A DNA stretch of 64,000 nucleotides from a virus (Duplodnaviria; Heunggongvirae; Uroviricota; Caudoviricetes): IMG/VR virus record IMGVR_UViG_3300037418_001222, one strand, 5' to 3'. Below, one piece after another: positions 507 to 46,161 of this stretch. Each line of letters begins with the position of its first letter. Positions within the stretch are counted from its first letter, which is position 1. The notes under the pieces were generated by a model. It saw only the letters and a list, made by a program, of their open reading frames with translations, had not been told where the DNA came from and ran no database searches. The position numbers were made by a program, and so were the translations under genes.

Positions 507-513
507 ATAAAAT

Positions 514-588
514 TGGATGCACCTGTAGGATTCGAACCCACGTTGTCCTCGTTCAAAGCGAAGCGTCCTACCACTAGACGAAGGTGCA
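514..588 (-). tRNA. trnQ: tRNA-Gln(TTG)
   Basis: Acceptor TGCACCT/AGGTGCA, loop CTTTGAA, T-arm, encoded CCA. Confidence 0.92.
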
Positions 589-589
589 A

Positions 590-630
590 TATAAAGTGGG
601 AGATTCTGTTTGTGGCAACGGCTCTCCCAT
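590..630 (-). terminator. Possible intrinsic terminator or structured spacer downstream of the vWA gene
   Basis: TGGGAGA/TCTCCCA 7-bp stem followed by CTTTATATT. Confidence 0.35.
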
Positions 631-695
631 GGCCGCTTAGCCTATTCTAACATTAGTGTCGAGTCGAATAGGACCAAGTTCTCGAGCACCAAAGC

Positions 696-1697: not shown

Positions 1698-1712
1698 ATA
1701 TTCGTATCCTTT

Positions 1713-1742
1713 AGTATAAATTGTGTTACAAAGTATTGGCAA
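1713..1742 (-). promoter_or_regulatory. sigma70-type promoter for the vWA gene
   Basis: TTGCCA-18 nt-TATACT. Confidence 0.5.
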
Positions 1743-1760
1743 TGTATTACATTACTGCAG

Positions 1761-1768
1761 TATTTATA
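1761..1768 (-). promoter_or_regulatory. T4-type late promoter
   Basis: Exact TATAAATA upstream of the vWA gene. Confidence 0.55.
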
Positions 1769-1958
1769 CTTTCTTTAGAATTCCCCAACTGGAACCCACT
1801 GGTTCAGTTGGAAACCCGCATAGGTCCAGATTCGCGGCAACCCATTTAGCTACTTCTTCTTGAGACTTATCTTTAAAGTAACTATTATAATGTGATCGAA
1901 ATGTTAATACTAAGTCAAATGATATATCAATTAACCTTTGTTCATTAGATCTTTCCAT
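1764..1958 (-). CDS. Hypothetical protein, 64 aa
   Basis: ORF track; sits between tRNA-Ile2 and the vWA gene, with an upstream GAGTAGAG purine tract. Confidence 0.6.
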   Translation of the reverse strand: MERSNEQRLIDISFDLVLTFRSHYNSYFKDKSQEEVAKWVAANLDLCGFPTEPVGSSWGILKKV

Positions 1959-1978
1959 ACTCTACTCACCTCGGTTAA

Positions 1979-2053
1979 TGGTGCACGCAGTAGGACTTGA
2001 ACCCACATCTGGGCCGTTATGAGCGGCTGGCTCTACCTTTGAGCTATACGTGC
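1979..2053 (-). tRNA. tRNA with CAT anticodon, most likely Ile2 (lysidine type), otherwise Met
   Basis: Acceptor GCACGTA/TGCGTGC, A73, CCA; AGAGCCAGCCG-CTCATAA-CGG resembles bacterial tRNA-Ile2. Confidence 0.85.
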
Positions 2054-2059
2054 ATTAGA

Positions 2060-2148
2060 TGGTAGCCGAGGTGGGGTTCGAACCCACGATGTTTCTAATG
2101 TAAGAGTTTTTAAGACTCCCGCGTTTCAACCAACTTCGCCACACGGCC
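2060..2148 (-). tRNA. trnL: tRNA-Leu(TAA)
   Basis: Loop CTTAAAA, long variable arm, T-arm, encoded CCA. Confidence 0.9.
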
Positions 2149-2160
2149 ATAATTGAAAGT

Positions 2161-2312
2161 GAAGTGACGTCCTCTACATCTATAGACTGAAACGCCTACA
2201 GCCACGCGAACTTCGACAATCGCGTAGAGGATAAGGGGCGGCATCCTGTTGGGACAGGGTCGATTTCATTTACTCGTAAGCGTCACTTCGGTACCCACCC
2301 TCTTACGAGGGT
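2161..2312 (-). ncRNA. Candidate structured ncRNA between tRNA-Ser(GCT) and tRNA-Leu
   Basis: 9-bp closing stem GAAGTGACG/CGTCACTTC, nested CCTCTAC/GTAGAGG stem, several hairpins, GTAA-capped 5' hairpin; no ORF. Confidence 0.5.
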
Positions 2313-2316
2313 ATTC

Positions 2317-2407
2317 TGGAGGAAGGTGCGGGATTCGAACCCAGCGAGAGCTTTTATACTCTAGTGTCTTAGCAGGACACCGACGTAAACCACTTGTCTA
2401 ACCTTCC
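2317..2407 (-). tRNA. trnS: tRNA-Ser(GCT)
   Basis: GTGTC-CTGCTAA-GACAC anticodon arm, long variable arm, CCA. Confidence 0.92.
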
Positions 2408-2409
2408 AT

Positions 2410-2574
2410 TTACTTCTTAGATTTCATCGCCATTTCAGTCGGATCCCATGGCTTCCCATCTACAAAGGCTTTGAATCGATGAGGGTCAGTCTTATGACGA
2501 TAGATACTCATGACAGAACCGTCATGTCTCTTAAATTCGAGATGAGGAGTTTCTAAGTCAAATTCTTCGTTCAT
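2410..2574 (-). CDS. Small hypothetical protein, 54 aa (MNEEFDLETPHLEFKRH...KSKK), missed by the ORF track
   Basis: Read manually; AGGGG SD; fills the gap between two tRNAs. Confidence 0.65.
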   Translation of the reverse strand: MNEEFDLETPHLEFKRHDGSVMSIYRHKTDPHRFKAFVDGKPWDPTEMAMKSKK

Positions 2575-2590
2575 AAGAATCCCCTAATGA

Positions 2591-2664
2591 TGGAGGCGGG
2601 CCAGGATTTGAACCTGTCCGGAGGGGTATGAGCCCAACATGCTACCTGCTTACAATAGCCCGCA
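2591..2664 (-). tRNA. Initiator-like tRNA-Met(CAT), atypical
   Basis: Unpaired 1:72 (T:C), three G-C pairs next to the CTCATAC loop, TTCAAAT T-loop, CCA; T-stem one pair short. Confidence 0.6.
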
Positions 2665-2717
2665 AAGGAGGCGATACTACACTTACATTACATCCGTGCT
2701 TAGCGTAGCATCTAACT

Positions 2718-2789
2718 TGGTGCTCGATCTATTGCACTCGGCGAAGCTTGCGTCTTGCTTCTATGAGACATGCGCCCATGCGATCGAGC
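2718..2789 (-). ncRNA. CCA-ended tRNA-like mini-RNA (no T-loop or D-loop consensus)
   Basis: 8-bp terminal stem GCTCGATC/GATCGAGC followed by A-CCA; internal hairpins. Confidence 0.5.
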
Positions 2790-2794
2790 TAATT

Positions 2795-2859
2795 TGGTGC
2801 GGCTCCCGGACTACTTTTAAGCAACTGCAAACCGGTGATTTAAGGGATGTGCCTACCGC
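2795..2859 (-). ncRNA. Second CCA-ended mini-RNA
   Basis: Terminal stem GCGGT/GCCGC followed by A-CCA; internal TCCC/GGGA pairing. Confidence 0.4.
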
Positions 2860-2923
2860 ATAAACTTTTAGAGGCTGAAGACCCGTCGCTTCATTTAATA
2901 CTCACTCATGAGTAACCAAATGG

Positions 2924-3002
2924 TGGAGGACCACCGGGGACTCGAACCCCGATCTCATGGATTAAAAGGCCAGTGTATTAAACCTATTATTACGAGTGGT
3001 CC
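2924..3002 (-). tRNA. trnK: tRNA-Lys(TTT), weak anticodon stem, genomic CCACCA 3' end
   Basis: Acceptor GGACCAC/GTGGTCC, loop CTTTTAA, GGTTCGAGTCC T-arm. Confidence 0.8.
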
Positions 3003-3073
3003 ATTAAGTAATTGAAGATAGCGATCGAGTTCACGATACTTTGATTGGGGCTCCATCCCTTATCTTCAAACTT

Positions 3074-3147
3074 TGGTGCCAATCGGGAGAATCGAACCCA
3101 CCAACAGCAGACTTATGAGATCCGCCTGCCCACCAGGGACGACTGGC
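3074..3147 (-). tRNA. trnM: tRNA-Met(CAT), elongator type
   Basis: Acceptor GCCAGTC/GATTGGC, CGGAT-CTCATAA-GTCTG, CCA. Confidence 0.85.
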
Positions 3148-3158
3148 ATGAATATTTG

Positions 3159-3244
3159 TCTCCGCCGCATGGGTACGACTTTCCGACCGCAGACTCGCCA
3201 GCTTCGAGCTATCTGCCTACGGGTTGCTATCCCGGTCGCGGAGA
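3159..3244 (-). ncRNA. Candidate multibranch structured spacer RNA
   Basis: TCTCCGC/GCGGAGA closing stem with CGGG/CCCG and GCAGA/TCTGC internal stems. Confidence 0.4.
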
Positions 3245-3249
3245 TTAAA

Positions 3250-3343
3250 TGGAGGAAGCGGTGGGATTCGAACCCACGGAACCCATCCCTGAGCCCCCTA
3301 GTTTTCAAGACTAGTCCAATAAACCAGACTCTGGCACGCTTCC
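3250..3343 (-). tRNA. trnS: tRNA-Ser(TGA)
   Basis: CTAGT-CTTGAAA-ACTAG, long variable arm, CCA. Confidence 0.92.
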
Positions 3344-3350
3344 ATTAAAC

Positions 3351-3424
3351 TGGATCCTCGAACTGGATTCGAACCAATATTGTACGGGTCAGAGCCGTTT
3401 GTCCTACCATTAGACGATCGAGGA
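3351..3424 (-). tRNA. trnQ: tRNA-Gln(CTG)
   Basis: Acceptor TCCTCGA/TCGAGGA, loop CTCTGAC, CCA. Confidence 0.88.
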
Positions 3425-3425
3425 A

Positions 3426-3504
3426 TGGCACGCCCTCATGGATTCGAACCACGGTCTCTCCTTTGTTTCCGTCAGGAGCGTCCTAGCCACTAGACGAAGG
3501 GCGT
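3426..3504 (-). tRNA. Glu/Asp-type tRNA body with an aberrant 11-nt anticodon loop (tRNA-like, anticodon undetermined)
   Basis: Acceptor ACGCCCT/AGGGCGT, G73, CCA; D-arm TTCGTCTAGTGGCTAGGAC; arm CTCCT-GACGGAAACAA-AGGAG. Confidence 0.75.
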
Positions 3505-3514
3505 ACATTAAAAT

Positions 3515-3588
3515 TGGTACTTCCTAGTGGAATCGAACCACTGTACTACGGTTATCGGCCGTTTGCATTACCCCTATGCTAAGGAAGT
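3515..3588 (-). tRNA. trnI: tRNA-Ile(GAT), C at position 33
   Basis: Acceptor ACTTCCT/AGGAAGT, loop CCGATAA, CCA. Confidence 0.85.
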
Positions 3589-3589
3589 A

Positions 3590-3667
3590 TGGCTCCCGCC
3601 GTAGGAATCGAACCTACCTCTATAGTGGTTAACGGCCACTCGCGATCACCTTGATCGCTAGACGGGA
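3590..3667 (-). tRNA. trnN: tRNA-Asn(GTT), C at position 33
   Basis: AGTGG-CCGTTAA-CCACT, G73, CCA. Confidence 0.87.
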
Positions 3668-3674
3668 ACATAAA

Positions 3675-3752
3675 TGGTACCCGAGGTGGGAATCGAACCC
3701 AACCTGAATTTGCGTGTAAAGCAAATGGCCTCACCAGATGCACTACTCGGGC
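3675..3752 (-). tRNA. trnV: tRNA-Val(TAC)
   Basis: TTTGC-TTTACAC-GCAAA, CCA. Confidence 0.9.
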
Positions 3753-3753
3753 G

Positions 3754-3833
3754 TGGAGCCCTAGACAGGAGTCGAACCTGCATGTGTTCCAGTTACCTTT
3801 CAACTGGTTCGTAGCCAGTGGGGATACTAGGGC
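3754..3833 (-). tRNA. Non-canonical tRNA-Arg(ACG)-like RNA lacking a D-arm in the normal position
   Basis: Acceptor GCCCTAG/CTAGGGC plus T-CCA; GCAGG-TTCGACT-CCTGT T-arm; ACTGG-CTACGAA-CCAGT arm directly after a 7-nt linker; D-loop-like TAACTGGA 3' of the anticodon arm. Confidence 0.65.
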
Positions 3834-3843
3834 TCATTAAAAC

Positions 3844-3960
3844 TAGCTCTATCGCGACCAATATCTGATCCATAGAGACTCTGTCACCAGAGCTTTGGGT
3901 GTTTCAGCAAAACAATAGCCGAAATACCCTAATAAAGTCGATTCAATTGTCAAAGAGCTA
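3844..3960 (-). ncRNA. Candidate multibranch structured spacer RNA
   Basis: TAGCTCT/AGAGCTA closing stem; GGGTATTTCGGC/GCTGAAACACCC hairpin; CTCTG-GTGA-CAGAG GNRA hairpin. Confidence 0.45.
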
Positions 3961-3965
3961 ATAGA

Positions 3966-4040
3966 TGGTGCCAAGAGAGGGAATCGAACCCCCGCCACGC
4001 GGTTCTTCAGACCGCTGCTCTACCCCTGAGCTACCTTGGC
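3966..4040 (-). tRNA. trnF: tRNA-Phe(GAA)
   Basis: Canonical cloverleaf, GCGGT-CTGAAGA-ACCGC, CCA. Confidence 0.95.
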
Positions 4041-4050
4041 ATTATCTATT

Positions 4051-4527
4051 TTAGCCGAGGCGAACCAAGTGATCCGCCGCGTGCATAGCCGCAAAAGCGT
4101 CAGGCTTAATTTTCGGATCAAAACCATTGCCTCTAACGTAGCCAATAGCCTCTTTAACCGCAGCCTGAGACTTGTACTTTGGATTAGGATTGATGTCTAG
4201 GTGAACCTCCATATGGCGATCACCAATAACATCTACCATTTCCAAAGCCGCATTCACAGCAAACATAACTTCATTCAAAAGTCTCTGCTTAGGAGACTTA
4301 TCTGGCGCCCAATCCTGTAGGACTTGAGCATCAGAGAATAGCTTGCAACCCTTAGAACTGTCCTTGTGGACAATAATAACGGTCATGTATCTAGCATGCC
4401 AGATACCGTTTCTCTTGAACCTCTTAGAGTCGCAGCCGATATAAACTGAAGACTCTGGACTTGAGGTTCTGATGGCTTCCTTTGCCTTCTCAATCCAAGT
4501 CTTCTTATCATTCACGATAATCTCCAT
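4051..4527 (-). CDS. RNase H-like protein (YkuK/DUF458 family)
   Basis: VYIGCDS...Y.TVI.VH...G...RL..EV...EVHLDIN...G...KIKPDAFAA...ADH pattern; start trimmed because the track start overlaps tRNA-Trp. Confidence 0.8.
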   Translation of the reverse strand: MEIIVNDKKTWIEKAKEAIRTSSPESSVYIGCDSKRFKRNGIWHARYMTVIIVHKDSSKGCKLFSDAQVLQDWAPDKSPKQRLLNEVMFAVNAALEMVDVIGDRHMEVHLDINPNPKYKSQAAVKEAIGYVRGNGFDPKIKPDAFAAMHAADHLVRLG

Positions 4528-4537
4528 AGTTCTAAAA

Positions 4538-4612
4538 TGGCACCGGTGCAAGGATTCGAACCCTGACAAGGAGTTTTGGAGGCTCCCGTGCTACCTTTAA
4601 CACCACACCGAT
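4538..4612 (-). tRNA. trnW: tRNA-Trp(CCA)
   Basis: Loop CTCCAAA, acceptor ATCGGTG/CACCGGT, G73, CCA. Confidence 0.9.
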
Positions 4613-4613
4613 G

Positions 4614-4692
4614 TGGTGGAGTACTAGGGAATCGAACCCTACTGATATCCTCCTTGCAAGGGAAGCGTCCACCCCATGCAGACCCGTACCCC
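4614..4692 (-). tRNA. trnA: tRNA-Ala(TGC)
   Basis: G3:U70 pair, CTTCC-CTTGCAA-GGAGG, CCA. Confidence 0.92.
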
Positions 4693-4700
4693 AATAATAA

Positions 4701-4783
4701 TGGCGACCGTGATGGGACTCGAACCCACCTTGCATTTCTGCTCCGCTAGACAGGCGGATGTTCTCCCCGAGAACTACACGGCC
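4701..4783 (-). tRNA. trnD: tRNA-Asp(GTC) with an extended variable arm
   Basis: TCCGC-CTGTCTA-GCGGA, variable hairpin GCA-GAAA-TGC, G73, CCA. Confidence 0.87.
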
Positions 4784-4784
4784 A

Positions 4785-4859
4785 TGGAGCGGGTGAAGGG
4801 AATCGAACCCTCGTATCTACCTTGGCAAGGTAGTGTAATATCCTCTATACGACACCAGC
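4785..4859 (-). tRNA. trnG: tRNA-Gly(GCC)
   Basis: CTACC-TTGCCAA-GGTAG, U73, CCA. Confidence 0.9.
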
Positions 4860-4869
4860 ACTAAAGAGA

Positions 4870-4945
4870 TGGAGGCCCAGATCGGACTCGAACCGACATT
4901 GAAACTGCTTTGCAGGCAGGCGCGTAACCATTCCGCCACCGGGCC
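4870..4945 (-). tRNA. trnC: tRNA-Cys(GCA)
   Basis: Loop CTGCAAA, U73, CCA. Confidence 0.92.
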
Positions 4946-5005: not shown

Positions 5006-5530
5006 CTAAGATTGAATTTTTTGCATAACTTGTCGAGTAATTGTGGATAATCCCTCCTCATCACCATCTATCTCAGTAAAATCTACATTATTGTCCCACA
5101 GAATTCGAAGAATCTTAATAGACATATCGTTAGATTCTTCCTCAGTCTGATTTCGTCCCTTAGGATTATATGGCTTTACTCTATTGATGTAGAAGTTAAT
5201 ATTATTGTATTGATTGAATGACCAGCTGATCGTATCATAGAAACACTGAGGATATCCGTCAGCGTATGCTAATGCTAATAGGATTGGAGAATCACATATA
5301 ATCACATCACAATCATGTGAGAGTGTCCAGACTCTATGGTGTTGTTTTCCGAAAACATAGAACTGATCTTGAAGAGCGTGTTGTCGCTTACTCCAGGTTA
5401 AGATCTTAGCATATTCTCCAGCGAGTTCGCAATTGACTCCTTGATTCTTAAGATTATAGAATAATCCGGAAGCAGTTGTAGACTTACCGCTCCCAGGAGG
5501 GGCGAATAGATTCACGATTAAGGGTTTCAT
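5006..5530 (-). CDS. P-loop nucleotide kinase-like protein (NadR/AAA_28 type)
   Basis: Walker A APPGSGKST; E.A, ICDSP and R...Y...GR.Q.EEE motifs. Confidence 0.75.
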   Translation of the reverse strand: MKPLIVNLFAPPGSGKSTTASGLFYNLKNQGVNCELAGEYAKILTWSKRQHALQDQFYVFGKQHHRVWTLSHDCDVIICDSPILLALAYADGYPQCFYDTISWSFNQYNNINFYINRVKPYNPKGRNQTEEESNDMSIKILRILWDNNVDFTEIDGDEEGLSTITRQVMQKIQS

Positions 5531-11750: not shown

Positions 11751-12974
11751 TTACGCGAAGAAGTCCACTATTGTTTTAGAAGACTTCTCCTCCCAAATTT
11801 CATGTGTCTGGTGAGCATTCACTTGGTAGGTGTAGTTAGAATCAAGATAAGGTCTATTTCCGAGTAGGACTTCATTCACCTCTACAGCCATGTCCTTAGC
11901 TGTCTTCACTGGAACATTTTGACAGATATGATTAGCCGACTTCTTTGGATTTAGAAGTTCGAAATCGAGAGGCATGCCCATGATGGAGAGAGCTTCTCTG
12001 TAGTTGATGTACCTGTCGTGGTCCGGATGGGTGAGCATTGATGGGTAATGACCGACAAATGCACCGATAAAGTCCTTGGGGACGATGGTACCTCTGCGCA
12101 TGACGTTACCACCAGCAGCAAGCTTAGAATACTTATACTTACACTTTTCGACTTCTTTATCATATCCATGTTTCTCTAACCATGCGCCGACCTGCTTATA
12201 ATCATGTCCCTGTTGTTCGATGAATGAGAATGTATCATTAGATCTAACTTTCAGAAACTCCATCTTCTCATGAGAGAACTGACGATGAGTTAAACCACCA
12301 AACATCTCTTCAAGAATATATCTGTAATATGGATCGTCTTTTGATGGAGTCTTTGGATTGATAGGCTCCTGCATTGTATTGGACTTAGCATCACGAATTA
12401 CATCCTCAATCTTCTTCCAAGGACGATTATAATACCCAAGGAGTGGAGTCTTATTTCCCTTCCAGAAGAAATAGAATGTGCGTTCTCTTGTTTGAGCTGT
12501 TCCATGTAGAAGAGATCTAGTTCTATATACGGTCATAGAATAACCGTTATCGAGTCCAATCTTTCTTACTTGATTCCTGATATCTGCTCCAATTTTTCCA
12601 GCAAACCCTGGTGCATTTTCCCCCCAGAAAACATCTGGTTTGAGTTCTCCTAGGACATATTGGGCAGACCTAACCATCCACTGATTGTTTTGGTTGTGAG
12701 TGCCGAACCCGTGGCTAAGCTGACTAAGACCAGCGCAAGGACAGGTGGTGTTGACCACAGTAACTTTCCTAGCAGGACGCTCACCACGGTCAATATAGTG
12801 ATAAGGAAGATCAACACCACGCTGCTCACGATAATAATTGATAAGATGCGATTCATTGGCTTGAAAACCTTCATACGTCATTAAATATTCAGGTGGAGAT
12901 CCATTGGCCTCCTCCTGAGCTAAAGTCATTCCTCCGATTAATGGAATAATTGATGCGTGTGTAATATCATTCAT
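11751..12974 (-). CDS. DNA cytosine-C5 methyltransferase homologue with degenerate SAM-binding motifs
   Basis: Catalytic TCPCAGLS (IV), GENAP (VI), QTRER (VIII) and YREALSIMGMP (IX) are present; motif I reads SIIPLIGG and motif X reads ICQNV. Confidence 0.8.
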   Translation of the reverse strand: MNDITHASIIPLIGGMTLAQEEANGSPPEYLMTYEGFQANESHLINYYREQRGVDLPYHYIDRGERPARKVTVVNTTCPCAGLSQLSHGFGTHNQNNQWMVRSAQYVLGELKPDVFWGENAPGFAGKIGADIRNQVRKIGLDNGYSMTVYRTRSLLHGTAQTRERTFYFFWKGNKTPLLGYYNRPWKKIEDVIRDAKSNTMQEPINPKTPSKDDPYYRYILEEMFGGLTHRQFSHEKMEFLKVRSNDTFSFIEQQGHDYKQVGAWLEKHGYDKEVEKCKYKYSKLAAGGNVMRRGTIVPKDFIGAFVGHYPSMLTHPDHDRYINYREALSIMGMPLDFELLNPKKSANHICQNVPVKTAKDMAVEVNEVLLGNRPYLDSNYTYQVNAHQTHEIWEEKSSKTIVDFFA

Positions 12975-13060
12975 TAGTCTACGTCAAACCACACAATAGC
13001 TTTATCAAATAAAGCCCAGAATAGTAAAGTGAATGCAACAATTACTAAGAATAAAAGCAT
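12974..13060 (-). CDS. 28-aa hydrophobic peptide (MLLFLVIVAFTLLFWALFDKAIVWFDVD)
   Basis: Read manually; TAATG-coupled at both ends. Confidence 0.55.
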   Translation of the reverse strand: MLLFLVIVAFTLLFWALFDKAIVWFDVD

Positions 13061-14214
13061 TAGAAGAAACTCTCCAAGGAGGCTGAAGGTGGAAGTACTG
13101 GATGGGCTGGAAGACCCTGCTTCTTGGGATCTTTGATTTGAGTAGTATTATACTCTACACCATTCCAGTGTGGATAGGACATTCGTGATAAGTGAACTGA
13201 ATTCTTATACTCCATTGCATGGAGATCTAGTTCACCCTTCTTATTTAGTAAGTATTCTGTCCACCTAATAAATCTAACTGGAATATGAGGATTAAGTTTA
13301 CATAAACCTTCGATTCGATTATTGAATACTTTTCGAGCATTCATCCTCTCCTCCCAAGATCCCCAGAACGGTTTCTTCATAAACATGCCAGACTGTGGTA
13401 ACTTACGAGCTTCTTCCTCACATGGAAGTAATTCATAGATTCCAACGCTCCTAAGATTTACAAATTTACCAGAAGAAAACAGTTCACACGCTGCAGTATA
13501 ATAATCGAGGGATAAATCAGAAGGAGTTGGCCAAAGATCTGTTCCTTCTTTAGTCTCTGTTCGACAGAAGTGATGTCTTAGATCGATGTTTCCAAAATAT
13601 AATTCTACATTCTCCACCTGATCATGAGAATCATATGGATCCATGATAAATGATTCTAGTCCTGATTTAAGAGCTCCACGAAGCGTCTTATAAGGAACTG
13701 AATTAACAGTCCAACCAGGCCGGTACATACAGATAGAATGGCTATCGCCAATAACAATATTGGGAGTGACATTTGGATACCTCAATACTTCTGAAGACTC
13801 CATCCTCTTAAGATTATCCCAGTCAATCTCCTCGAATTCTGGTTTTGGAGTTCTTCCGTTTCCTTTATCTTGAGCGAGTTTCTCTTGTAGTTGTTGGTGA
13901 TAGTTAGGAAATGGTATTCCCAACGAAATAACTTCACCTTTAAATAGAGTTAAGTTTCTAAAGTTCCAAGCATATGGAAATCCTTCGGTTCCTCCATATA
14001 GATTAAGTCCACCAGACCAGTCATTACCATGATATACATAGACCTTATCGAACTCGTTAAAGTCATAGCATACGTGACCTCCGAAATTTACTACAACCTC
14101 ATCTCCGGTCGCCTGTTTAATCATATCAGCATAGATGACTCCCTGAGCTGCTCTATGTGATGCCATGAAGATGGCGATAGGAATAAACGGTGCTACTACT
14201 AAAGATCTTGCCAA
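13060..14214 (-). CDS. Protein with an SGNH/GDSL-like C-terminal domain
   Basis: VIGDSHS (block I), FGNID (block III), SVHL (block V); ends SASLESFF. Confidence 0.6.
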   Translation of the reverse strand: MARSLVVAPFIPIAIFMASHRAAQGVIYADMIKQATGDEVVVNFGGHVCYDFNEFDKVYVYHGNDWSGGLNLYGGTEGFPYAWNFRNLTLFKGEVISLGIPFPNYHQQLQEKLAQDKGNGRTPKPEFEEIDWDNLKRMESSEVLRYPNVTPNIVIGDSHSICMYRPGWTVNSVPYKTLRGALKSGLESFIMDPYDSHDQVENVELYFGNIDLRHHFCRTETKEGTDLWPTPSDLSLDYYTAACELFSSGKFVNLRSVGIYELLPCEEEARKLPQSGMFMKKPFWGSWEERMNARKVFNNRIEGLCKLNPHIPVRFIRWTEYLLNKKGELDLHAMEYKNSVHLSRMSYPHWNGVEYNTTQIKDPKKQGLPAHPVLPPSASLESFF

Positions 14215-14782: not shown

Positions 14783-14958
14783 TCTATAAACTCCTTTAGA
14801 AGTTCTATAACTACTGGAATTTGATACTCCCAGAGTTTATAAGAATCGCCGAGCCTATTTCGAGTTTCTTCGGTAACTGCCCAACCGGTTCCATCTGGAT
14901 CGATGCCTTTTACTTTACACACTCTTCGCGCATAATGTTCAATGTCACTATTAGCCAA
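14779..14958 (-). CDS. Hypothetical protein, about 59 aa
   Basis: Track ORF trimmed to the TTG at 14958 (GGAG SD 7 nt upstream), removing most of the overlap with the upstream gene. Confidence 0.55.
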   Translation of the reverse strand: MANSDIEHYARRVCKVKGIDPDGTGWAVTEETRNRLGDSYKLWEYQIPVVIELLKEFID

Positions 14959-16204
14959 AGAAATTCTCCAATGATGCTGATTGATTTCCAACCTCTTTAG
15001 AGATTGGAGCGGAAGCTCTAGCGTGTGCTGCTTGTGGATTACTTCGAAGTCTACAAAAAACGTTAAATTGGCAACTGCCAATCTCGATTCCAAAGGTAGT
15101 AAATCTACCTAGTTCTGTAGCTTCTGAGTGATACTTATAATCCAAGTCACTAGAAATGTCAAGGAATTTATGCTGCATATCTCTGATCTGAAGGATCAGA
15201 TGCATAGTGGTCTTTGGGTTGATCGCTACAGTAGGAAAGAGATTTTTAAGAGTAGCGGATGCGCCTGGACCAGCCACCACAAAATTAGCGTCTTCATCAA
15301 GTTCTCCATGTTCAATACCTAACTTATCGAATTCATATTTATGTTCTACTTCGATAATAGAAGAGCTACCAACACCCGGCATTCGAGACAGATTAGAAGA
15401 GAAGTGGTACCCGTAGTATGGTCCTATTCCTCTCAATGCAGTCAGATACTCATATGATCCCTGCATTGTTGGCTTTGTCTTATAGAATCTGCTCCATTCA
15501 GGAGTAAGACTCTTCAACCAAGCGATCATATCAGAAGTTCTCATCTTTCTCTGAGTATGATCTGAATTTGGCTCAATTATGACTCTATTATTGAAAGTAA
15601 GACCTCTACGATCTATGATAGTTCCATTAGCTCTAGCATAATTTCTAGATGCTATTTGTAGCGAAGTTCTAAGTTCAGTAGTTCCCCAGAGCTGTTCCTT
15701 ATGATGAGAGGCGAGCTCTATATTCCTCATGAGGGTGTATTCGTATTCCTCATCCTCTTGAATTCGTTTGAAATCAATGTACGGTAATTCTGTCCGAACC
15801 ACGTATGGTAGATCAGATACGTGTCCTGTGATGATGGAAAGGGTTCTAGAAGGACCGTAGAACTTAACAATGGCTGAGTTAACGAGTTTGTTTTCGAACG
15901 AGACTTCAGGTCGGAAATAGAGATTTGAATTAAGCCAGATGATCTCGTCGTGGAATGAACGATTGGGGTGGAAATATGGTATTGGTCTCCCGTCAATGAC
16001 AAATCCAGTACCGAAGTGTTCTTGATGTTGGTATCCCGACTTAACGTAATCTTCAAAGGTTTCATGAGTCTTCCCAATTCGTACACACCATTCTCTCTTA
16101 TTGAACTCTCTAATGAATGATCCGAATTGTTTTCTTACATCGTGATCACATATCTTCCAAAAATCAGAACCATCTAGAGATAAAGCTTCTTGTGTAGTCA
16201 ACAT
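14951..16204 (-). CDS. Divergent aGPT-Pplase clade-1 / 5-hmdU DNA kinase-like helical protein
   Basis: LTALRGIGPYYGYHFSSNL, FVVAGPGA and IEIGSCQF resemble the family's GIG.F..Y...Dl, GPGA and E..lCE motifs; ends SASLENFFG. Confidence 0.55.
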   Translation of the reverse strand: MLTTQEALSLDGSDFWKICDHDVRKQFGSFIREFNKREWCVRIGKTHETFEDYVKSGYQHQEHFGTGFVIDGRPIPYFHPNRSFHDEIIWLNSNLYFRPEVSFENKLVNSAIVKFYGPSRTLSIITGHVSDLPYVVRTELPYIDFKRIQEDEEYEYTLMRNIELASHHKEQLWGTTELRTSLQIASRNYARANGTIIDRRGLTFNNRVIIEPNSDHTQRKMRTSDMIAWLKSLTPEWSRFYKTKPTMQGSYEYLTALRGIGPYYGYHFSSNLSRMPGVGSSSIIEVEHKYEFDKLGIEHGELDEDANFVVAGPGASATLKNLFPTVAINPKTTMHLILQIRDMQHKFLDISSDLDYKYHSEATELGRFTTFGIEIGSCQFNVFCRLRSNPQAAHARASAPISKEVGNQSASLENFFG

Positions 16205-16379
16205 ATGTTCTTTTCATTCCTAATTCTTCTTTCAATCTACAAATTTCAAGAAACTGACCTTGAGTGCATCTTCCTTCTCTTTTAATTTTTGCTTCTAATT
16301 TTCTTAGAGCTTTTAACTTATTTCTATTCTGAGGTAGATTCCAAGGTTTTTGGTCCATGCCATACATTCTCTTTATCAA
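16164..16379 (-). CDS. Possible small basic hypothetical protein
   Basis: ORF track; covers the 120-nt gap but overlaps both neighbours. Confidence 0.35.
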   Translation of the reverse strand: MIKRMYGMDQKPWNLPQNRNKLKALRKLEAKIKREGRCTQGQFLEICRLKEELGMKRTYVDYTRSFISRWF

Positions 16380-16728
16380 CTAGGTCATGAACAATTCTCA
16401 CGACTTTAACTCTAGGGCACTCTTCTTCAATAATTAGAGCCTGAACTTCATCATCCTCAAAGTGGATTTTAATATCGTATCCAACATCTAAAAGATGATT
16501 TAGAGTTCTAGCCTTATGCTTTCCAGACTTTTCTCTAGTCTTGCTCTCGAATGCTACTGGAGAATAGAAGACCTTGTTATGAATATCCTGATGATCTAAC
16601 CAGTAGTCAGTGTATTCTTTCTCGTCAAGAGATCTACCGGTGATAATTACATCTTTAGGTCCTGGACGAAGACCGTTGTAATTATCACCAAGATAGATTA
16701 CACCATCGATATCGTATGAGTTAATCAC
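16324..16728 (-). CDS. HAD-superfamily phosphatase (capless)
   Basis: DIDGV (I), ITGRS (II), K (III), FEDD (IV). Confidence 0.85.
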   Translation of the reverse strand: MINSYDIDGVIYLGDNYNGLRPGPKDVIITGRSLDEKEYTDYWLDHQDIHNKVFYSPVAFESKTREKSGKHKARTLNHLLDVGYDIKIHFEDDEVQALIIEEECPRVKVVRIVHDLVDKENVWHGPKTLESTSE

Positions 16729-17119
16729 GATCTCTTACTTCAGTTGTAGGAGTATATGGAAATGTTACGTCTACTCGGCTCTCATAGTTTGTGACACAAC
16801 ATCCATCTGGATCTCTCCAAACAATTCCTTCAATATCATATGCTCGACCATTTTCTTTGAACACTCGAGGAGATCTTTTATTCTGATATAGATTCTCTCC
16901 GACCTCATTCCATTCAGAATCTTCACCAGTTAACGGCGTGAGAGGTTCAAATCTCATTAGCTTCTCAACGATCTGAGTTGTAAGTCCCGCAGAAAATCCA
17001 GAGTGACCCTGATTAGCAAACACTCTAACTAGTTCTAGAGCAGCGTCAGCGATCATGTTATTATATTCATCACCTCGAAAAGACTCGAGTTCTTTTTCAG
17101 CATATTCAACTAAGCTCAT
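16721..17119 (-). CDS. Conserved phage hypothetical protein
   Basis: AEKEL...F..QGHSGFSA...EPLTPLTGEDSEWNEV pattern. Confidence 0.75.
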   Translation of the reverse strand: MSLVEYAEKELESFRGDEYNNMIADAALELVRVFANQGHSGFSAGLTTQIVEKLMRFEPLTPLTGEDSEWNEVGENLYQNKRSPRVFKENGRAYDIEGIVWRDPDGCCVTNYESRVDVTFPYTPTTEVRDRD

Positions 17120-17163: not shown

Positions 17164-18354
17164 TTAGGCAACTTGTGATGTAAGTGCTTCTCTGACATTC
17201 TTCACTGGGAGGTTATTAGCAATAAGAGTTGGGGTTAACCTACGTTCGGCTAGAGCCTTGCACTCCTCGTATGCATCTTGGATCATCATTTGTTCGATTG
17301 GTGTCTTCTGAGTTGCAGCGGATGGGCCACGAAGAGAACCGACAAGTCCAAGTTCTCTAGCGACTTGTAAAAATCTTAGAGCGTCGATAACCACCCCGGC
17401 AGAGTTTGGCGAATCTTGGACAGACAGTCGAGCGTCGAATATGACTGGAGCTCCTCCGAAGCCTTCAGCTTCGATTCTGAAATGTGCGACCTTATTATCT
17501 CCATGGTACGCAATATAGCTTGATGGTCCTGCATAGATTCCATTCTTAGGGACTGGGATTCCTCGAATATCATTCTGGCTCCTGATTACGTTTTCTTTAG
17601 ATATCTTCTTTGAAGCAAGACGGCTCTGATCCATCATGTTGAGGAAGTCAGTGTTTCCACCATGGTTAGTCTGTTCATGGAACTTAACCTGCATTCCACG
17701 ATTGAAGAAGAGTTCCTGAAGCGCCTGACTTAGAACAGAAGCTCCGAGCTGAGAGCGCATATCATCACCAATCGCTGGAATTCCTGCTTCTTTAATTCGA
17801 GCTTCCCACTTAGGATCAGATACGATGAAGACTGGAATACAGTTTACGAATGGAACCTTAGCCTCAAGACAACCCTCAACATAGAACTCAGTAGCTTCCT
17901 GAGATCCGACTGGAAGATAATTTAGAAGGACATCGACCTTGTGGTCTTTTAGATCCTTAACTAGTTGTTCATGAGTGAGTTGCTCTGAAACTTCATCAAT
18001 ACGGAAAGCTTCATCCTCATCATAGTCAATCATGTGAGGGGCAACTCCGTCAAGAACGGCTCCCATCTTTACATATGTACTTCCTGTCACATCAAGAAGA
18101 TCTTCTTGATCGACATTGAAATTCATAGCACAGTTTGGTTTTTGGCTAATAGCAGCAGATAGATGTCTACCGACTTTACGTGGGTCCACGTCATAGGCAA
18201 GCACGAACTCGATGTTCTCTGCCTTATATCCACCAATTTCTGGAAATGCGAGACCGTCTGTCTGACCGGTCTTAGAGTAGAGAGCGACTCCCTCTACGAG
18301 AGATTTAAAACAATTGCCCACACCAACGGCGGCAACACGAATTTTATTTTGCAT
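17164..18354 (-). CDS. ino1: myo-inositol-1-phosphate synthase
   Basis: VGVGNCFKSLVEG NAD-binding start, LNYLPVGS, FVNCIPVFI, GDDMRSQLGA, NHGGNTDFLNM, GDNK, LSVQDSPNSAGVVIDA. Confidence 0.93.
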   Translation of the reverse strand: MQNKIRVAAVGVGNCFKSLVEGVALYSKTGQTDGLAFPEIGGYKAENIEFVLAYDVDPRKVGRHLSAAISQKPNCAMNFNVDQEDLLDVTGSTYVKMGAVLDGVAPHMIDYDEDEAFRIDEVSEQLTHEQLVKDLKDHKVDVLLNYLPVGSQEATEFYVEGCLEAKVPFVNCIPVFIVSDPKWEARIKEAGIPAIGDDMRSQLGASVLSQALQELFFNRGMQVKFHEQTNHGGNTDFLNMMDQSRLASKKISKENVIRSQNDIRGIPVPKNGIYAGPSSYIAYHGDNKVAHFRIEAEGFGGAPVIFDARLSVQDSPNSAGVVIDALRFLQVARELGLVGSLRGPSAATQKTPIEQMMIQDAYEECKALAERRLTPTLIANNLPVKNVREALTSQVA

Positions 18355-18449: not shown

Positions 18450-18743
18450 TTATTTATAGTGATTGTAATTTTTGGCGATATCGCTTTGAAGAATGGCTAA
18501 TACACGACTCCTTCTTGCTTCTCTAGAATTTGTTGCTGGCCATTTATTCCAAGCATATTGATTAGCATAAAATGCGTCATTTACTAGAGTCCAAAGAGGA
18601 TCGTTTCTATCTTCTCTTTCAAACGTTAGAAATTGAGCAATAAATTGCTCTTGTAATTCTAAAGGGTCTAAAATAATTTCGATAATTTTATCGTACTCTC
18701 TTTGAGTCAATCCCTTTTTCTGTTCTTCTAATTTTTCATTCAT
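18450..18743 (-). CDS. Hypothetical protein, 97 aa
   Basis: ORF track; coupled to its neighbour. Confidence 0.65.
   Translation of the reverse strand: MNEKLEEQKKGLTQREYDKIIEIILDPLELQEQFIAQFLTFEREDRNDPLWTLVNDAFYANQYAWNKWPATNSREARRSRVLAILQSDIAKNYNHYK
18451..18458 (-). promoter_or_regulatory. T4-type late promoter upstream of ino1
   Basis: Exact TATAAATA. Confidence 0.6.
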
Positions 18744-19023
18744 TCAAATATGTCCTGCATTCATCTAAACACTTATTGACAAATTTATCATTTAGATCGA
18801 TTAACCAGACTGCTACTTCAAATGTTCCATCTGACTTCTGAATCCAGAATAAATCTTGCTGTGGGCAGTAAAAGAGTCTATTCATCCTCAATAGATATTC
18901 AGTATTTACTCGACACCCGGCTCCATTTTTAGTTTTGGAATATAGTGAGTGCTTCTGACAAAATCTAATAACTTTGTCGGTAAAACTCTTATTTTCACCC
19001 GGATTTGGTGTTAAGATACTCAC
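18736..19023 (-). CDS. Hypothetical protein, 95 aa, C-terminal helix duplicated from the UDG-like gene
   Basis: ORF track; NDKFVNKCLDECRTYLN versus NDDRFINKCLEECREYLN. Confidence 0.55.
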   Translation of the reverse strand: MSILTPNPGENKSFTDKVIRFCQKHSLYSKTKNGAGCRVNTEYLLRMNRLFYCPQQDLFWIQKSDGTFEVAVWLIDLNDKFVNKCLDECRTYLNE

Positions 19024-19432
19024 GACATTCTTCTAAACACTTATTGATGAACCTATCATCATTAATTTGTCTATTAAGGGGAGATGGATGGGGTAGCTTG
19101 AAGTGGTCTATGCCGGCCTTCATTAGAGCCTCAGCGGCAAAATTCCCCAAGGCAACTACCCTAGGAAACTTATATAGGGCTTTCCTCAAATTGTCAAGGT
19201 TTACTTGTGAGACTTTGCATTTTCCTGGGTGTGGATAAGCATTCATGAATGTAAAAGTATCAAGACCTAACTTTTCTACCCAATCATTCAAGCGAGGGAA
19301 GGTGTTCTTTCCCTTTGCAGCTTTGGCTGATGGATTCTGACCTACAAAAGCTACGATATCTGTAGAAGCTTCATAAACCAATTCCACGCTCTTGAGACCC
19401 TCGAGGGTTGATCCAATTTCAATATCTGACAT
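18995..19432 (-). CDS. Uracil-DNA glycosylase superfamily protein
   Basis: FVGQNP (motif A), VVALG..A and LPHPSPLN (motif B). Confidence 0.75.
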   Translation of the reverse strand: MSDIEIGSTLEGLKSVELVYEASTDIVAFVGQNPSAKAAKGKNTFPRLNDWVEKLGLDTFTFMNAYPHPGKCKVSQVNLDNLRKALYKFPRVVALGNFAAEALMKAGIDHFKLPHPSPLNRQINDDRFINKCLEECREYLNTKSG

Positions 19433-19881
19433 TAGTCTATACCAATATCTACTTCTACGATTTCAATTCCGGCCTCAGTGAAATAAGCCTTAGTCTTATT
19501 CACCGATTCCAACCAACGATCATATAATCTTTCAGGAAGAACTGGAGCTACAACTCTATTAATTCCAGCTTGGATCATGTGAACGGCGCACCTGTCACAA
19601 GATAAGAATGGCCAGGTGTAGAGAGTGCATCCTTTAACAGACCTCTGAGCATTCAATACAGCATTCATCTCACAATGAACGATCATTGAGTACTTAGTTG
19701 GTCTATCATTTAGTCTTTCTGGAGTATCTTTGAGACGATGTGGAAAACCATTATATCCTACTGATACGATATGTCTATCTTCGTCTACTATCACCGCTCC
19801 AGTTTGAGTAGACGGATCTTTACTCCAAGTCGAGATTAGTTTTGTTAATTCCAGGAACCGTAAGTCCCAATTCTTTTTCAT
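19432..19881 (-). CDS. cd: dCMP deaminase
   Basis: WSKDPSTQTGAVI, GYNGFP, HCEMNA, SCDRC; start moved to the ATG at 19881. Confidence 0.9.
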   Translation of the reverse strand: MKKNWDLRFLELTKLISTWSKDPSTQTGAVIVDEDRHIVSVGYNGFPHRLKDTPERLNDRPTKYSMIVHCEMNAVLNAQRSVKGCTLYTWPFLSCDRCAVHMIQAGINRVVAPVLPERLYDRWLESVNKTKAYFTEAGIEIVEVDIGID

Positions 19882-20110
19882 CAATTGCATCCATCGTGTT
19901 GTCAAAGATCTTGTGGAAGGCACTCATATCGTGACTACCATCATCCAAGTCTACAAAAACTTGAAGGAATAAGACCACAAGAGCATAGGTCCGTCTCTTG
20001 GGATAGAACGGTGTTGGTCCCTCATATACAACCTTTGGAATCCACTTCCAGTTGAATGGATTCAGGTTGAATCTAAGAGATATATCAGAGTTCTTTAGGT
20101 ATTTCATCAT
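19820..20110 (-). CDS. Hypothetical protein, 96 aa
   Basis: ORF track. Confidence 0.6.
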   Translation of the reverse strand: MMKYLKNSDISLRFNLNPFNWKWIPKVVYEGPTPFYPKRRTYALVVLFLQVFVDLDDGSHDMSAFHKIFDNTMDAIDEKELGLTVPGINKTNLDLE

Positions 20111-20216
20111 CTTTTGTTAATTCCAAAGTAGGAACTTCGTGCATTCTTGCTATGATGATAACTCCAGCATAGACTAAAGCTACAAATCCTATTACGATAA
20201 ATGCTATCATTGTCAT
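20085..20216 (-). CDS. 43-aa single-TM membrane peptide (MTMIAFIVIGFVALVYAGVIIIARMHE...)
   Basis: Read manually; TAATG-coupled to the gp42 stop. Confidence 0.55.
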   Translation of the reverse strand: MTMIAFIVIGFVALVYAGVIIIARMHEVPTLELTKDDEIPKEL

Positions 20217-20869
20217 TAGTTAATCAATCCAAAATGTCTCTCGTAGACGTGAAGGCTTCCGACTTGCCAAATAATATCTCCAGTAGGAACATCTAGTTCT
20301 TTACTAACTTTATTCAGAACATGCTTTGCCCATGACCAATCATTTTTATATCCAAAAACTACGTCATTAGATCTCATGGTTACTACCACGTGAACCTTAC
20401 CATCACGAATTAAATATTGATGAGCATTAGTGCAGATAAAATCACTCATTCCAGCTCGATTATACTCGAACTGAATACTTGGTCTAGTGTAAATCATGAT
20501 TGCTCTTCGAGAATACGGATCTCTTTTAAGAGCCTCTACACAACTCATGAACTGATCACAATTCTCACCTGAGTAGATCAGATATCCGTAATTCGAATTA
20601 ATCTCACCACTTGGAGTAGCAACTTGCTTCCAGATATGAGGAACTGGAGGTGGAATATCATTCACATTGAGAGACTGAGACTCATACCATTGAATCTCTC
20701 TTCTAACATAATCCTCATTAACTGTTCCGAAGATCGCCGGTTCATCTGCTAGAAATGATGCTCCCACCATCTCTACCATCTTACATCCGGTCTTATCGAT
20801 TACGAAGTTCTGTTTCTCGAGTTCCGTCTTGAAGTACGTCCTGATGTCTTGGATTGTTGTTCTCTGCAT
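20216..20869 (-). CDS. gp42: dCMP hydroxymethylase (thymidylate synthase family)
   Basis: Matches T4 gp42 as I recall it: DKTG.K..E..GASF.ADEP.IFG, GEINSNYG, SRR.IMIYTRPS, GMSDF.CTN (catalytic Cys), MRSNDVVFG..ND (cytosine-specifying Asp). Confidence 0.92.
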   Translation of the reverse strand: MQRTTIQDIRTYFKTELEKQNFVIDKTGCKMVEMVGASFLADEPAIFGTVNEDYVRREIQWYESQSLNVNDIPPPVPHIWKQVATPSGEINSNYGYLIYSGENCDQFMSCVEALKRDPYSRRAIMIYTRPSIQFEYNRAGMSDFICTNAHQYLIRDGKVHVVVTMRSNDVVFGYKNDWSWAKHVLNKVSKELDVPTGDIIWQVGSLHVYERHFGLIN

Positions 20870-21609
20870 TCAATTCTCTCTAGATGTTCTTTAATATCTT
20901 CTTCGTATCGATCTCCTATATCCGAAGGAGATCCTGCAACTTCAATCCTATCAATAATATTTGGATTGATCTTTTGCACGCATGTATGTTGTAATGAATC
21001 TGTGCAATTAATCTCCCCATGAGGAATCGTAATTGGACCAACATTAGCTACTTCTTTGGTATATGAAGCGGCTACTCTATTGATCCAACCAGTACCACTT
21101 TCATATTCAGTAGTAAATCCATCCTCTTCAACTTCATTTTCTACAATATTGTTATTCATTAGTATTGTATCATCAAATTTGATATAACTAGCTCTCACAC
21201 CATTAAGAGGATCATCACGAGCATCTACCGCTCGATCATACTCCTCTCGAGTCATTTCTGCTTCAAGTGGAACTGGGCGATTAATCATATCACGATTAAT
21301 ATCTTGACCTTCCATCTTTCCACGAATATATGATACAGCGAAAGAAGCATAGTTGATGAGATCTTTATAAGTGTCCTCTAGGCCTTCGAAATTAGGTTCA
21401 CTCGAATCACCATTCTCATACGTCTCAAGGAGTGACTGAGCTCGTAAGAGCTTCTGAGAGATCATATCATGAATGGTGGATACTCCTCGACGATAGTGCA
21501 TTGCCTGAAGAATATTTGACTTCTCGTTCTGGTAGTCTCTAGACTTCTTGAGCTGAAGTTCGATACATTCTTCAAGTACATGCACTGATTCACGCTTTGC
21601 TGAAGACAT
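20800..21609 (-). CDS. Nucleotide-modification-associated domain 1 (DUF1599)-like protein with a long C-terminal extension
   Basis: ELQLKKSRDY...K..RA..L...EGLEDTYKDLINYASF. Confidence 0.7.
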   Translation of the reverse strand: MSSAKRESVHVLEECIELQLKKSRDYQNEKSNILQAMHYRRGVSTIHDMISQKLLRAQSLLETYENGDSSEPNFEGLEDTYKDLINYASFAVSYIRGKMEGQDINRDMINRPVPLEAEMTREEYDRAVDARDDPLNGVRASYIKFDDTILMNNNIVENEVEEDGFTTEYESGTGWINRVAASYTKEVANVGPITIPHGEINCTDSLQHTCVQKINPNIIDRIEVAGSPSDIGDRYEEDIKEHLERIECREQQSKTSGRTSRRNSRNRTS

Positions 21610-22075
21610 TCTTATATCCTTTATATGCTGAAGGAGATAGGTTCCACATCAATTCAGATGCATTCCTGTCCTGTATTTTACCAATTTCTACAAGATTTGT
21701 CAACCTATAAAATTGGCAATATTGCTTATTGAAGTGATCTCGCCACTCATATCTTCGATTTGTTTCCGGATCTATGAGAGACTCTCGTATAGTTACGTAA
21801 TCTTCCGGAAGATCTGGAACTTCGATGAAGATGAGTCTATCTACGGATTCGCACTTTTTAGATTGTTGTACTGGAAGACAGAAGGCGTTGAACTTATAGA
21901 TTGGAAGTAGAGTCTTAACCTCTACCGTCTTTCCATCTATAATCATATCCTTCTCTGCGTCGAACTTATCCTCACTCATCGTGACTTTAAGTCCTTGATC
22001 TTCAAAGAACCTTCGAACTATTCCCTCACCCACAGCTCCCAAGGCTTCTTTACGTTGCCATGGGGTTAGAGTCAT
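21590..22075 (-). CDS. PD-(D/E)xK nuclease-like protein
   Basis: G..GE...D...EVK motif arrangement. Confidence 0.65.
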   Translation of the reverse strand: MTLTPWQRKEALGAVGEGIVRRFFEDQGLKVTMSEDKFDAEKDMIIDGKTVEVKTLLPIYKFNAFCLPVQQSKKCESVDRLIFIEVPDLPEDYVTIRESLIDPETNRRYEWRDHFNKQYCQFYRLTNLVEIGKIQDRNASELMWNLSPSAYKGYKNVFSKA

Positions 22076-22611
22076 TTGAATAGCTTACCAAAGTCCTTAA
22101 AGTCAATCCTGTCTAGTATTCCATGATTGTCTGAATGATCTGGTGCGGTCCATCCTTCTGGCTTACAGAGGTCTGGAAGTCCTAGAGGATTAGGTCTATT
22201 CGGCTTAATTCCTCGTTCCTTAGCCATATTAGCGTTATGAACTCGATTCCAAGCTTCTTGAGCGTCTACATCAAAACAATCCAGTGTTCCAATAGCGACG
22301 ACACAAAGATCAATCATGGCATCTACGATATCTTCTCCGGATTCGGCATTCTTTGCTTCATCTAATTCTTCTTGCAAGAAGTTAAGTCGGAACTTTAGCA
22401 TCTCACGAAGCATCTCAGGAGTCATCTTGCCGATGGCATCATGAAATCCGAATTTATCGTGCATATCATAGTTATCGAGCCACCATGGTCGATCAATATA
22501 GACCTCCATGTTTTCATCGAAATCTGGTGAGAAGGTAATATCTAGTGGTGGAAGAAAATCATCGATATTGATGATATTACTCTTCTCTTTTTCATTGTCA
22601 TTATCGTTCAT
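22072..22611 (-). CDS. MazG-like / PRA-PH NTP pyrophosphohydrolase (probable dCTPase-type function)
   Basis: RLNFLQEELDE...DAMIDL.VVAIGT...VH.ANMAK...KPEGW.APD. Confidence 0.85.
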   Translation of the reverse strand: MNDNDNEKEKSNIINIDDFLPPLDITFSPDFDENMEVYIDRPWWLDNYDMHDKFGFHDAIGKMTPEMLREMLKFRLNFLQEELDEAKNAESGEDIVDAMIDLCVVAIGTLDCFDVDAQEAWNRVHNANMAKERGIKPNRPNPLGLPDLCKPEGWTAPDHSDNHGILDRIDFKDFGKLFK

Positions 22612-46132: not shown

Positions 46133-46161
46133 GGCTTTGGCCTTTGAAAGTGTATAGTATT

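Follow-up and report, generated by a model that had tools for sequence, protein, structure and literature searches.

Genes of the locus

The window, by which we mean the whole stretch of 64,000 nucleotides that was analysed, comes from a contig listed at 177,910 bases and, with its gp23-, gp20-, gp17-, gp46/47-, gp55- and clamp/loader-like genes, belongs to the genome of a T4-like phage. A cluster of 18 tRNA genes lies at 432-4945 (minus strand), and on the plus strand, at 46144-50019, genes for a multi-domain glycosyltransferase, an FkbM methyltransferase and a 2OG-Fe(II) oxygenase precede a collagen-like tail-fibre gene; the role of these three is probably hydroxylation and glycosylation of a virion protein. 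The subject of this work is an intact ORF at 14951-16204, which, as all other genes described below in this section, is on the minus strand, and whose 417-aa product we call the transferase. The motifs that an earlier note had listed for this product were all found in the translation: GIGPYYGY at residue 259, GPGA at residue 312 and E..SCQF, reading EIGSCQF, at residue 374.

The base on which the transferase is likely to act is indicated by a thymidylate synthase-family gene (20216-20869, PF00303) encoding a T4 gp42-type dCMP hydroxymethylase, the predicted source of 5-hydroxymethylcytosine (5-hmC). The protein, with the sequence SDFICT...RSNDVVFGYKND, agrees with T4 gp42 at every position compared: L143D, a retained D169 (RSND) and N177D. 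This combination is the signature of 5hmdCMP synthesis and D169N that of 5-hydroxy-dCMP synthases (PMC13326640); the D169N of the 5-hydroxycytosine glycosylation systems (RB69, DLP3, RL38J1) is absent from the window's enzyme. In loci chosen for their SGNH gene (see below), the same D143/D169/D177 triad was found in 45 of 47 synthases, the other two being unreadable by the pattern, and it recurs in phage 44RR2.8t and in distant relatives whose synthase gene is far away. The cytosine-specifying Asp that the earlier note had seen in the partner synthase is thus borne out by the complete T4 gp42 triad. A dUMP hydroxymethylase was not found in the complete relative G001 (78% identical), which has a single ThyA-family gene and ThyX. 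The transferase is not part of the thymidine pathway consisting of dUMP hydroxymethylase, 5-HMUDK and amino acid:DNA transferase (AADT).

Several further genes of nucleotide metabolism surround the synthase: UDG-like and dCMP-deaminase-like genes between the synthase and INO1 (18995-19923; PF03167, E 6.8e-7; HCE...SCDRC in the translation), a protein with Nucleotide-modification-associated domain 1 (DUF1599; 20800-21609; PF07659, E 9.1e-5, below the cut-off) and a MazG-like nucleotide pyrophosphohydrolase (22072-22611; phrog_671, E 4.7e-19), which, to judge by its presumed substrate, is a candidate dCTPase.

Two genes point to inositol. The ORF at 17164-18354 resembles myo-inositol-1-phosphate synthase (INO1/MIPS; PF01658, E 1.4e-24). 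Its closest structure is Ino1 of M. tuberculosis (1gr0, E 3.8e-74), with which it shares, apart from one K-to-R change, the KKISK, D-x-K, DSPNS and K-[ST]-P motifs; its score is below the TIGR03450 equivalog cut-off. From sequence, its identification as an inositol-phosphate synthase is well supported. In many marine homologues of INO1 the motifs of the active site are altered, thus the cyclitol may vary. The second gene (16324-16728; phrog_415, E 4.6e-9) encodes a small HAD-type phosphatase, a putative inositol-phosphate phosphatase, whose DxDG motif is kept in 54 of 55 homologues. A Tad3-type anti-Thoeris gene (16721-17119; PF25185, E 5.7e-39) is inserted between INO1 and HAD, an arrangement seen in only one related locus. 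The T4 late-promoter consensus TATAAATA occurs at 18451-18458 on the same strand, about 100 nt upstream of INO1, and upstream of INO1 in 13 of 100 related loci, where approximately 3 would be expected. A scan for sigma-70 promoters gave a result at chance level.

The ORF at 13060-14214 encodes a two-domain SGNH protein, our proposed 5-hmC O-acyltransferase, in which an N-terminal part weakly similar to the N-domain of T4 beta-glucosyltransferase (hhalign probability 70%, E 4e-5) is followed by an SGNH-fold domain (E 9e-6, Z 13.1) and a clamp motif. O-acetyl esterases and O-acetyltransferases of sugars and peptidoglycan are among the fold matches of the SGNH domain. The predicted active-site residues are S158, G180, N209 and H341 (motifs GDSH, GNxD and SxH), S158 and G180 being invariant and N209 and H341 conserved in at least 90% of the homologues; the Asp commonly located three residues ahead of the His is missing. 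At least 580 IMG/VR stretches encode this partner. A C5-methyltransferase-like protein (11751-12974; PF00145, E 1.8e-13) is encoded beside it and may have an accessory function; its SAM motif is degenerate (PLIGG), its PC and ENAP motifs are intact, it too has a clamp motif, and it could be a 5-hmC dehydroxymethylase or editor. This gene is conserved next to the SGNH gene with either of the two cassettes described below (73 of 78 SGNH loci), and its product had no match in 44RR2.8t, phage 25 or G002.

Family, fold and catalytic residues of the transferase

The transferase matches the C-terminal half of phrog_17781 (E 5.7e-164). Among cultured phages, matches were confined to 19 Aeromonas 44RR2.8t-like records (57% identity), and the metagenomes yielded 129 homologues at E<=1e-3, and 66 clusters at 50% identity. 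The earlier note had placed the protein near aGPT-Pplase1, and this assignment holds: PF18723 (formerly aGPT-Pplase1, now HMUDK_hel) matches residues 305-387 with E 4.9e-5, and more distant homologues pass its curated cut-off of 25 with 30-53 bits (E down to 4.6e-14). Of the profile comparisons that the note had proposed, the one with PF18723 thus gave a match, though at 23.3 bits, below the cut-off, whereas PF18724 (ADDT/aGPT-Pplase2) gave no profile match and PF18748 and PF18747 none at E<=1. PF18724 was not found in the complete relatives either, in a search in which the positive controls M6 and Cr30 were matched. In hhalign comparisons the transferase was aligned to the clade-1 protein M6 gp55 with E 5.5e-4 and to the clade-2 protein M6 gp51 with E 0.57; its GPGA and E-x-x-x-C-[QE]-F motifs align with M6 gp55, including the EHTLC motif of the latter. 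Judged by these alignments, the transferase is a member of the aGPT-Pplase superfamily, nearer to clade 1 than to clade 2. This nearness counts against a cyclitol-transferase function, as the literature accessible to us shows no activity for clade 1.

Both features by which the superfamily is recognised, the helical fold resembling HhH glycosylases and the Glu-x-x-x-Cys pair, are present. The AlphaFold2 model (pLDDT 93.7) is mainly helical, with an HhH-like motif at residues 254-261, and its top fold match is the AADT PaMx11 gp46 (PDB 8z2m; Z 9.4, rmsd 4.2, 227 aligned residues), followed by DUF2419 (Z 9.2) and then by HhH glycosylases. A Z score of 9.4, tied with DUF2419, is modest for a helical protein and speaks against the transferase reading. 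Searches of PDB sequences with the protein and with its profile gave nothing significant, and Foldseek of the model against the PDB found no match at E<=0.001. In an alignment of 87 sequences G259, G312, E374, C378 and Q379 are invariant, and E374 and C378 are also kept in those distant representatives that cover the region. These two residues, the predicted catalytic pair (E374-x-x-x-C378, codons at 15071-15085, minus strand), have the same spacing as Glu243 and Cys247 of PUGT, an enzyme in which an exocyclic methylene arises after attack of the Cys on C6 (PMC11472151). The E-x-x-x-C residues are essential in M6 gp51 and ViI gp247 (PMC8989533; PMC11472151). Taken together, we consider it very probable that 14951-16204 encodes an AADT-type DNA group transferase.

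The transferase ends in SLENFFG (14951-14977, minus strand), which we take to resemble the binding motif for the gp45 clamp. A C-terminal L-x-x-F-[FLM] was counted in 50 of 61 members of the transferase family, 74 of 78 SGNH proteins, 58 of 66 methyltransferase-like proteins and all 12 ORFs read as DNA polymerase C-termini, and in none of the INO1, HAD, synthase, recA-like and helicase-like ORFs. Some transferase homologues have, instead of this motif, a C-terminal extension that looks winged-helix-like by eye. Since the motif is common to the transferase, the SGNH protein and polymerase-like ORFs, the transferase most likely works on DNA.

The earlier note had gone on to propose a 5-hmC kinase or phosphotransferase, on the premise that characterised clade-1 members phosphorylate 5-hmdU. 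Neither the premise nor the proposal was upheld. Every 5-hmdU DNA kinase listed is a P-loop protein, and the aGPT-Pplases that have been assayed are transferases (PMC8989533). In SP10 gp186 a kinase is fused to a clade-1 helical domain (PMC5889632, Table 3), and after deletion of the C-terminal part the kinase domain alone retains phosphorylation (PMC8989533); the misleading Pfam name 'kinase, helical domain' presumably goes back to this fusion. In M6 the PF18748 protein is gp54, and gp55, a full member of PF18723, is dispensable for both phosphorylation and transfer. The 417-aa transferase contains no Walker A pattern, comparison of its model with known structures returned no kinase fold, and it has the Glu/Cys pair of transferases. 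Walker-A-like patterns do occur in 11 homologues, but they lie in a loop and were discounted as chance matches. No PF18748 or PF18747 kinase was found in the complete relatives G001, G003 and 44RR2.8t, in a search that matched the controls M6 and RP13, and a search of the complete relatives for PF18751, made without a good positive control, returned none. A P-loop protein of the AAA_28 type (ORF 5006-5530) was considered as activator and provisionally set aside: it lacks an HMUDK match and occurs in only two related loci. The family and the cytosine context proposed by the earlier note therefore stand and the kinase function does not; the note does not mention the inositol genes or the SGNH partner, our pointers to the likely substrate.

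Cassettes in related phages

Linkage was assessed in two samples. Among 59 non-Aeromonas loci selected on the transferase, down to 40% identity, the neighbouring genes were INO1 in 59, HAD in 56 and SGNH in 58. When 78 loci were selected on the SGNH gene instead, 56 had the transferase family and INO1, nearly always with HAD, and 13 had other ExxxC proteins with HMUDK_hel/ADDT-like features, accompanied in 10 cases by a PLP-enzyme-like gene and in none by INO1. The two cassettes share one slot and never co-occur, but the loci are related and not independent samples, with only some 3 to 4 changes of cassette type across the SGNH tree. Five loci with the transferase and without INO1 are cut by contig ends.

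In the alternative cassette (L071:6029-9020, L077:5499-9122, L131:6775-9068 and L145), SGNH is joined by a PLP-enzyme-like gene and by one or two divergent aGPT-Pplase-like genes of the ExxxC type, with the dCMP hydroxymethylase alongside. This arrangement suggests amino-acid-derived modifications of 5-hmC; cultured phages gave no match to it. Its proteins C18 and C23 could not be linked to the transferase family by profile-profile comparison; their likeness to AADTs lies in the ExxxC motif and in Atlas features.

Fusions are found in several relatives. The SGNH domain is N-terminal to the transferase in 44RR2.8t and L165, and C-terminal in P0264, an FkbM-transferase-SGNH protein located after INO1 and HAD. 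FkbM methyltransferases are fused to the transferase in P0059, P0261 and P0264, and in L103-L114, too, an FkbM gene is fused to or adjoins it. The fusions suggest an O-methyl-inositol variant.

Instead of INO1 and HAD, 44RR2.8t and L165 encode a Na+/solute symporter. In 44RR this protein is most similar to vSGLT-type sugar transporters, and its cellular relatives are located in glycoside-hydrolase, pentose and galactose loci and not in inositol operons, which counts against inositol; its interpretation as an inositol transporter is thus unsupported. In Aeromonas phage 25 (L064:3773-7044) the slot of the 44RR2.8t symporter and fusion is occupied by genes for a UDP-galactopyranose mutase, a 358-aa protein that looks like a glycosyltransferase and SGNH, and a PF18723 match is absent from this phage. 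The phage 25 cassette predicts galactofuranosyl-hmC. Since SGNH occurs there without a PF18723 match, it does not always activate the base for a transferase of this kind, and phage 25 is the main counter-example to such a role; in this phage the final product could be acyl-hmC, or it could be the sugar that is acylated.

INO1 was also seen in other settings. In Caulobacter phage Cr30 (L063:6735-10182) it is adjacent to a clade-2 ADDT gene and a TAGT-like glycosyltransferase gene, and a PF18748 kinase and a gp42-type synthase were not found in this phage. In Stenotrophomonas phage Moby (L062:8204-13618) it lies within a 7-deazaguanine cluster (FolE, QueC, tRNA-ribosyltransferase-like, QueE), a hint that some other modified base carries inositol, and in Ralstonia phage RP13 (L065:9001-14544) it is 3 kb from a PF18747 5-hmdU DNA kinase gene.

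A proposed pathway and its relation to known systems

Our preferred reading, to which we assign a probability of roughly 0.6, is that the protein is a cyclitol:DNA transferase producing an inositol ether of 5-hmC; that the transferred group is inositol or a close cyclitol is, taken separately, also probable. The enzyme would be tethered to the clamp and act on 5-hmC in DNA after replication. By analogy with T4 gp42, the synthase would make hm-dCMP and thereby place 5-hmC in DNA, and INO1 together with HAD, if the latter has the presumed substrate, would convert glucose-6-phosphate to free myo-inositol. The hydroxymethyl oxygen would then have to become a leaving group, most likely through O-acylation by the SGNH protein. 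We propose this protein because no 5-hmdU kinase family was found in the complete relatives; such an activating role is a tentative suggestion, to which we give slightly less than even odds. The transferase would flip the base, C378 would add to C6 with assistance from E374, the departure of the leaving group would create the exocyclic methylene, and a hydroxyl of inositol would add to it to give 5-(inositol-O-methyl)cytosine. This last step is modelled on the O-serine transfer by ViI gp247, in which the serine hydroxyl attacks the methylene. The FkbM fusions fit a polyol that is O-methylated, and SP10 gp186 is a precedent for the fusion of an activator to a transferase (PMC5889632). The modification would probably shield the DNA from host nucleases. 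Still more tentatively, there may be a widespread phage pathway in which SGNH acylates 5-hmC without ATP or a kinase and the transferase installs myo-inositol, O-methylated in some phages, with the same SGNH protein feeding amino-acid-type cytosine cassettes.

Inositol transfer might also take place with a different order of events: SGNH could O-acylate the polyol after its attachment, or cap other 5-hmC sites as a final product, and the transferase could work by direct dehydration or with another activator. C5-methyltransferases can condense thiols with unactivated hmC, the phage 25 cassette combines SGNH with mutase and glycosyltransferase-like genes, and the O-acetyl esterases and transferases among the SGNH fold matches act on sugars and peptidoglycan. 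On the other hand, polyol genes are lacking in the PLP-type cassettes, where SGNH is present too, the SGNH N-domain is weakly similar to that of beta-glucosyltransferase, an enzyme whose acceptor is hmC itself, and the formation of an ether from a free alcohol in water would presumably lack a driving force. We regard this order as rather unlikely; our estimates for the rival explanations overlap with those for the main reading, and this one shares its inositol claim.

Clearly less probable is that the same mechanism is used with a nucleophile other than inositol (an amine, a monosaccharide or a different cyclitol), INO1 and HAD having a role in host metabolism or some other role. The vSGLT-like symporter of 44RR, with bacterial relatives in sugar loci, would agree with this, as would the Stenotrophomonas phages, which carry INO1 in a 7-deazaguanine cluster and have no tblastn match to the transferase family. 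It is opposed by the occurrence of INO1 in every transferase-selected locus and its mutual exclusion with the alternative cassette; furthermore, at several residues of what we take to be the vSGLT galactose site, the 44RR symporter is different.

We think it improbable that the protein is a clade-1-type editing enzyme, stripping or reducing the activated hydroxymethyl group to leave 5-mC or C, or an HhH glycosylase. The nearest Pfam family is clade 1, which, like the route from hmU to T, still awaits an explanation in M6 and ViI (PMC5889632), borohydride reduces the AADT intermediate to T (PMC8989533), and HhH glycosylases come next in the fold list. Editing would, however, leave the inositol genes and the FkbM fusions unexplained, and the glutamyl-T of SP10 is made with a clade-1 domain and no other (PMC5889632), thus clade 1 plausibly transfers groups. 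An ATP-dependent 5-hmC DNA kinase, for which only the Pfam name and the room left at the activation step by the lack of a P-loop 5-hmdU kinase in the relatives speak, is very improbable, given that the activity of SP10 gp186 maps to its P-loop half, that M6 gp55 is dispensable, and that the transferase has the Cys/Glu pair of transferases and no Walker A.

If the cyclitol-transferase reading is correct, AADT chemistry is not limited to uracil as the base and amino acids as the transferred groups but also covers cytosine and a cyclitol, a kinase-free activation of a DNA base could come to light, and DNA modification would offer an explanation for phage INO1 genes. The reading also bears on the function of the clade-1 aGPT-Pplases. 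The predicted inositol-hmdC (C16H25N3O10, 419.15 Da) has the formula and mass of glucosyl-hmdC, thus the two are not separable by mass alone and inositol-hmC could be mis-called as glucosyl-hmC. A C378-dependent hmC-labelling enzyme could serve as a tool. Cultured phages with the enzyme exist, and uncultured T4-like phages commonly carry the cassette. In the literature on inositol, SGNH or 44RR in connection with DNA modification, where subscription journals were thinly covered, we found no description of such a base or cassette.

The closest cultured counterparts are the uncharacterised ORF233c of Aeromonas phage 44RR2.8t and PHG31ORF233c of phage 31, whose transferase domain is 57% identical and fused to SGNH. 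In contrast to the cassette of the window, these phages have the Na+/solute symporter in place of INO1 and HAD, and no methyltransferase-like gene was found in them. Phages 44RR, 31 and 25 have gene 42 and lack glucosyltransferases, and how their hmC is decorated was left open (Petrov 2010, PMC2993671); our proposal bears on what 44RR2.8t and 31 attach to it. With the glucosyl-hmC pathway of T4 (gp42, gp56, alpha/beta-glucosyltransferase) the cassette shares the hmC precursor and a predicted product of equal formula. It differs in having no Leloir transferase in its core, and the predicted linkage is an ether to a carbocycle made from a free polyol, not a glycoside made from a UDP-sugar.

In sequence, the nearest family is aGPT-Pplase1/HMUDK_hel (M6 gp55, ViI gp160, PhiW-14 gp72 and the C-terminal domain of SP10 gp186), whose domain, like the transferase family, occurs fused to a partner enzyme. 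Compared with it the transferase is a divergent subfamily, with a sub-threshold score, a match restricted to the C-terminal part, and INO1, HAD, SGNH and dCMP hydroxymethylase as partners. In mechanism, the nearest relatives are the AADTs (PF18724: M6 gp51, ViI gp247, PaMx11 gp46 and PhiW-14 gp109), which share with the transferase the HhH-glycosylase-like helical fold, the E-x-x-x-C pair and the proposed addition of a thiol to C6 with formation of an exocyclic methylene, and of which ViI gp247 already makes an O-linked ether. The transferase differs from them in having no PF18724 match and no P-loop kinase partner that we could find, in its cytosine instead of uracil context, and in its predicted cyclitol nucleophile and its clamp motif.
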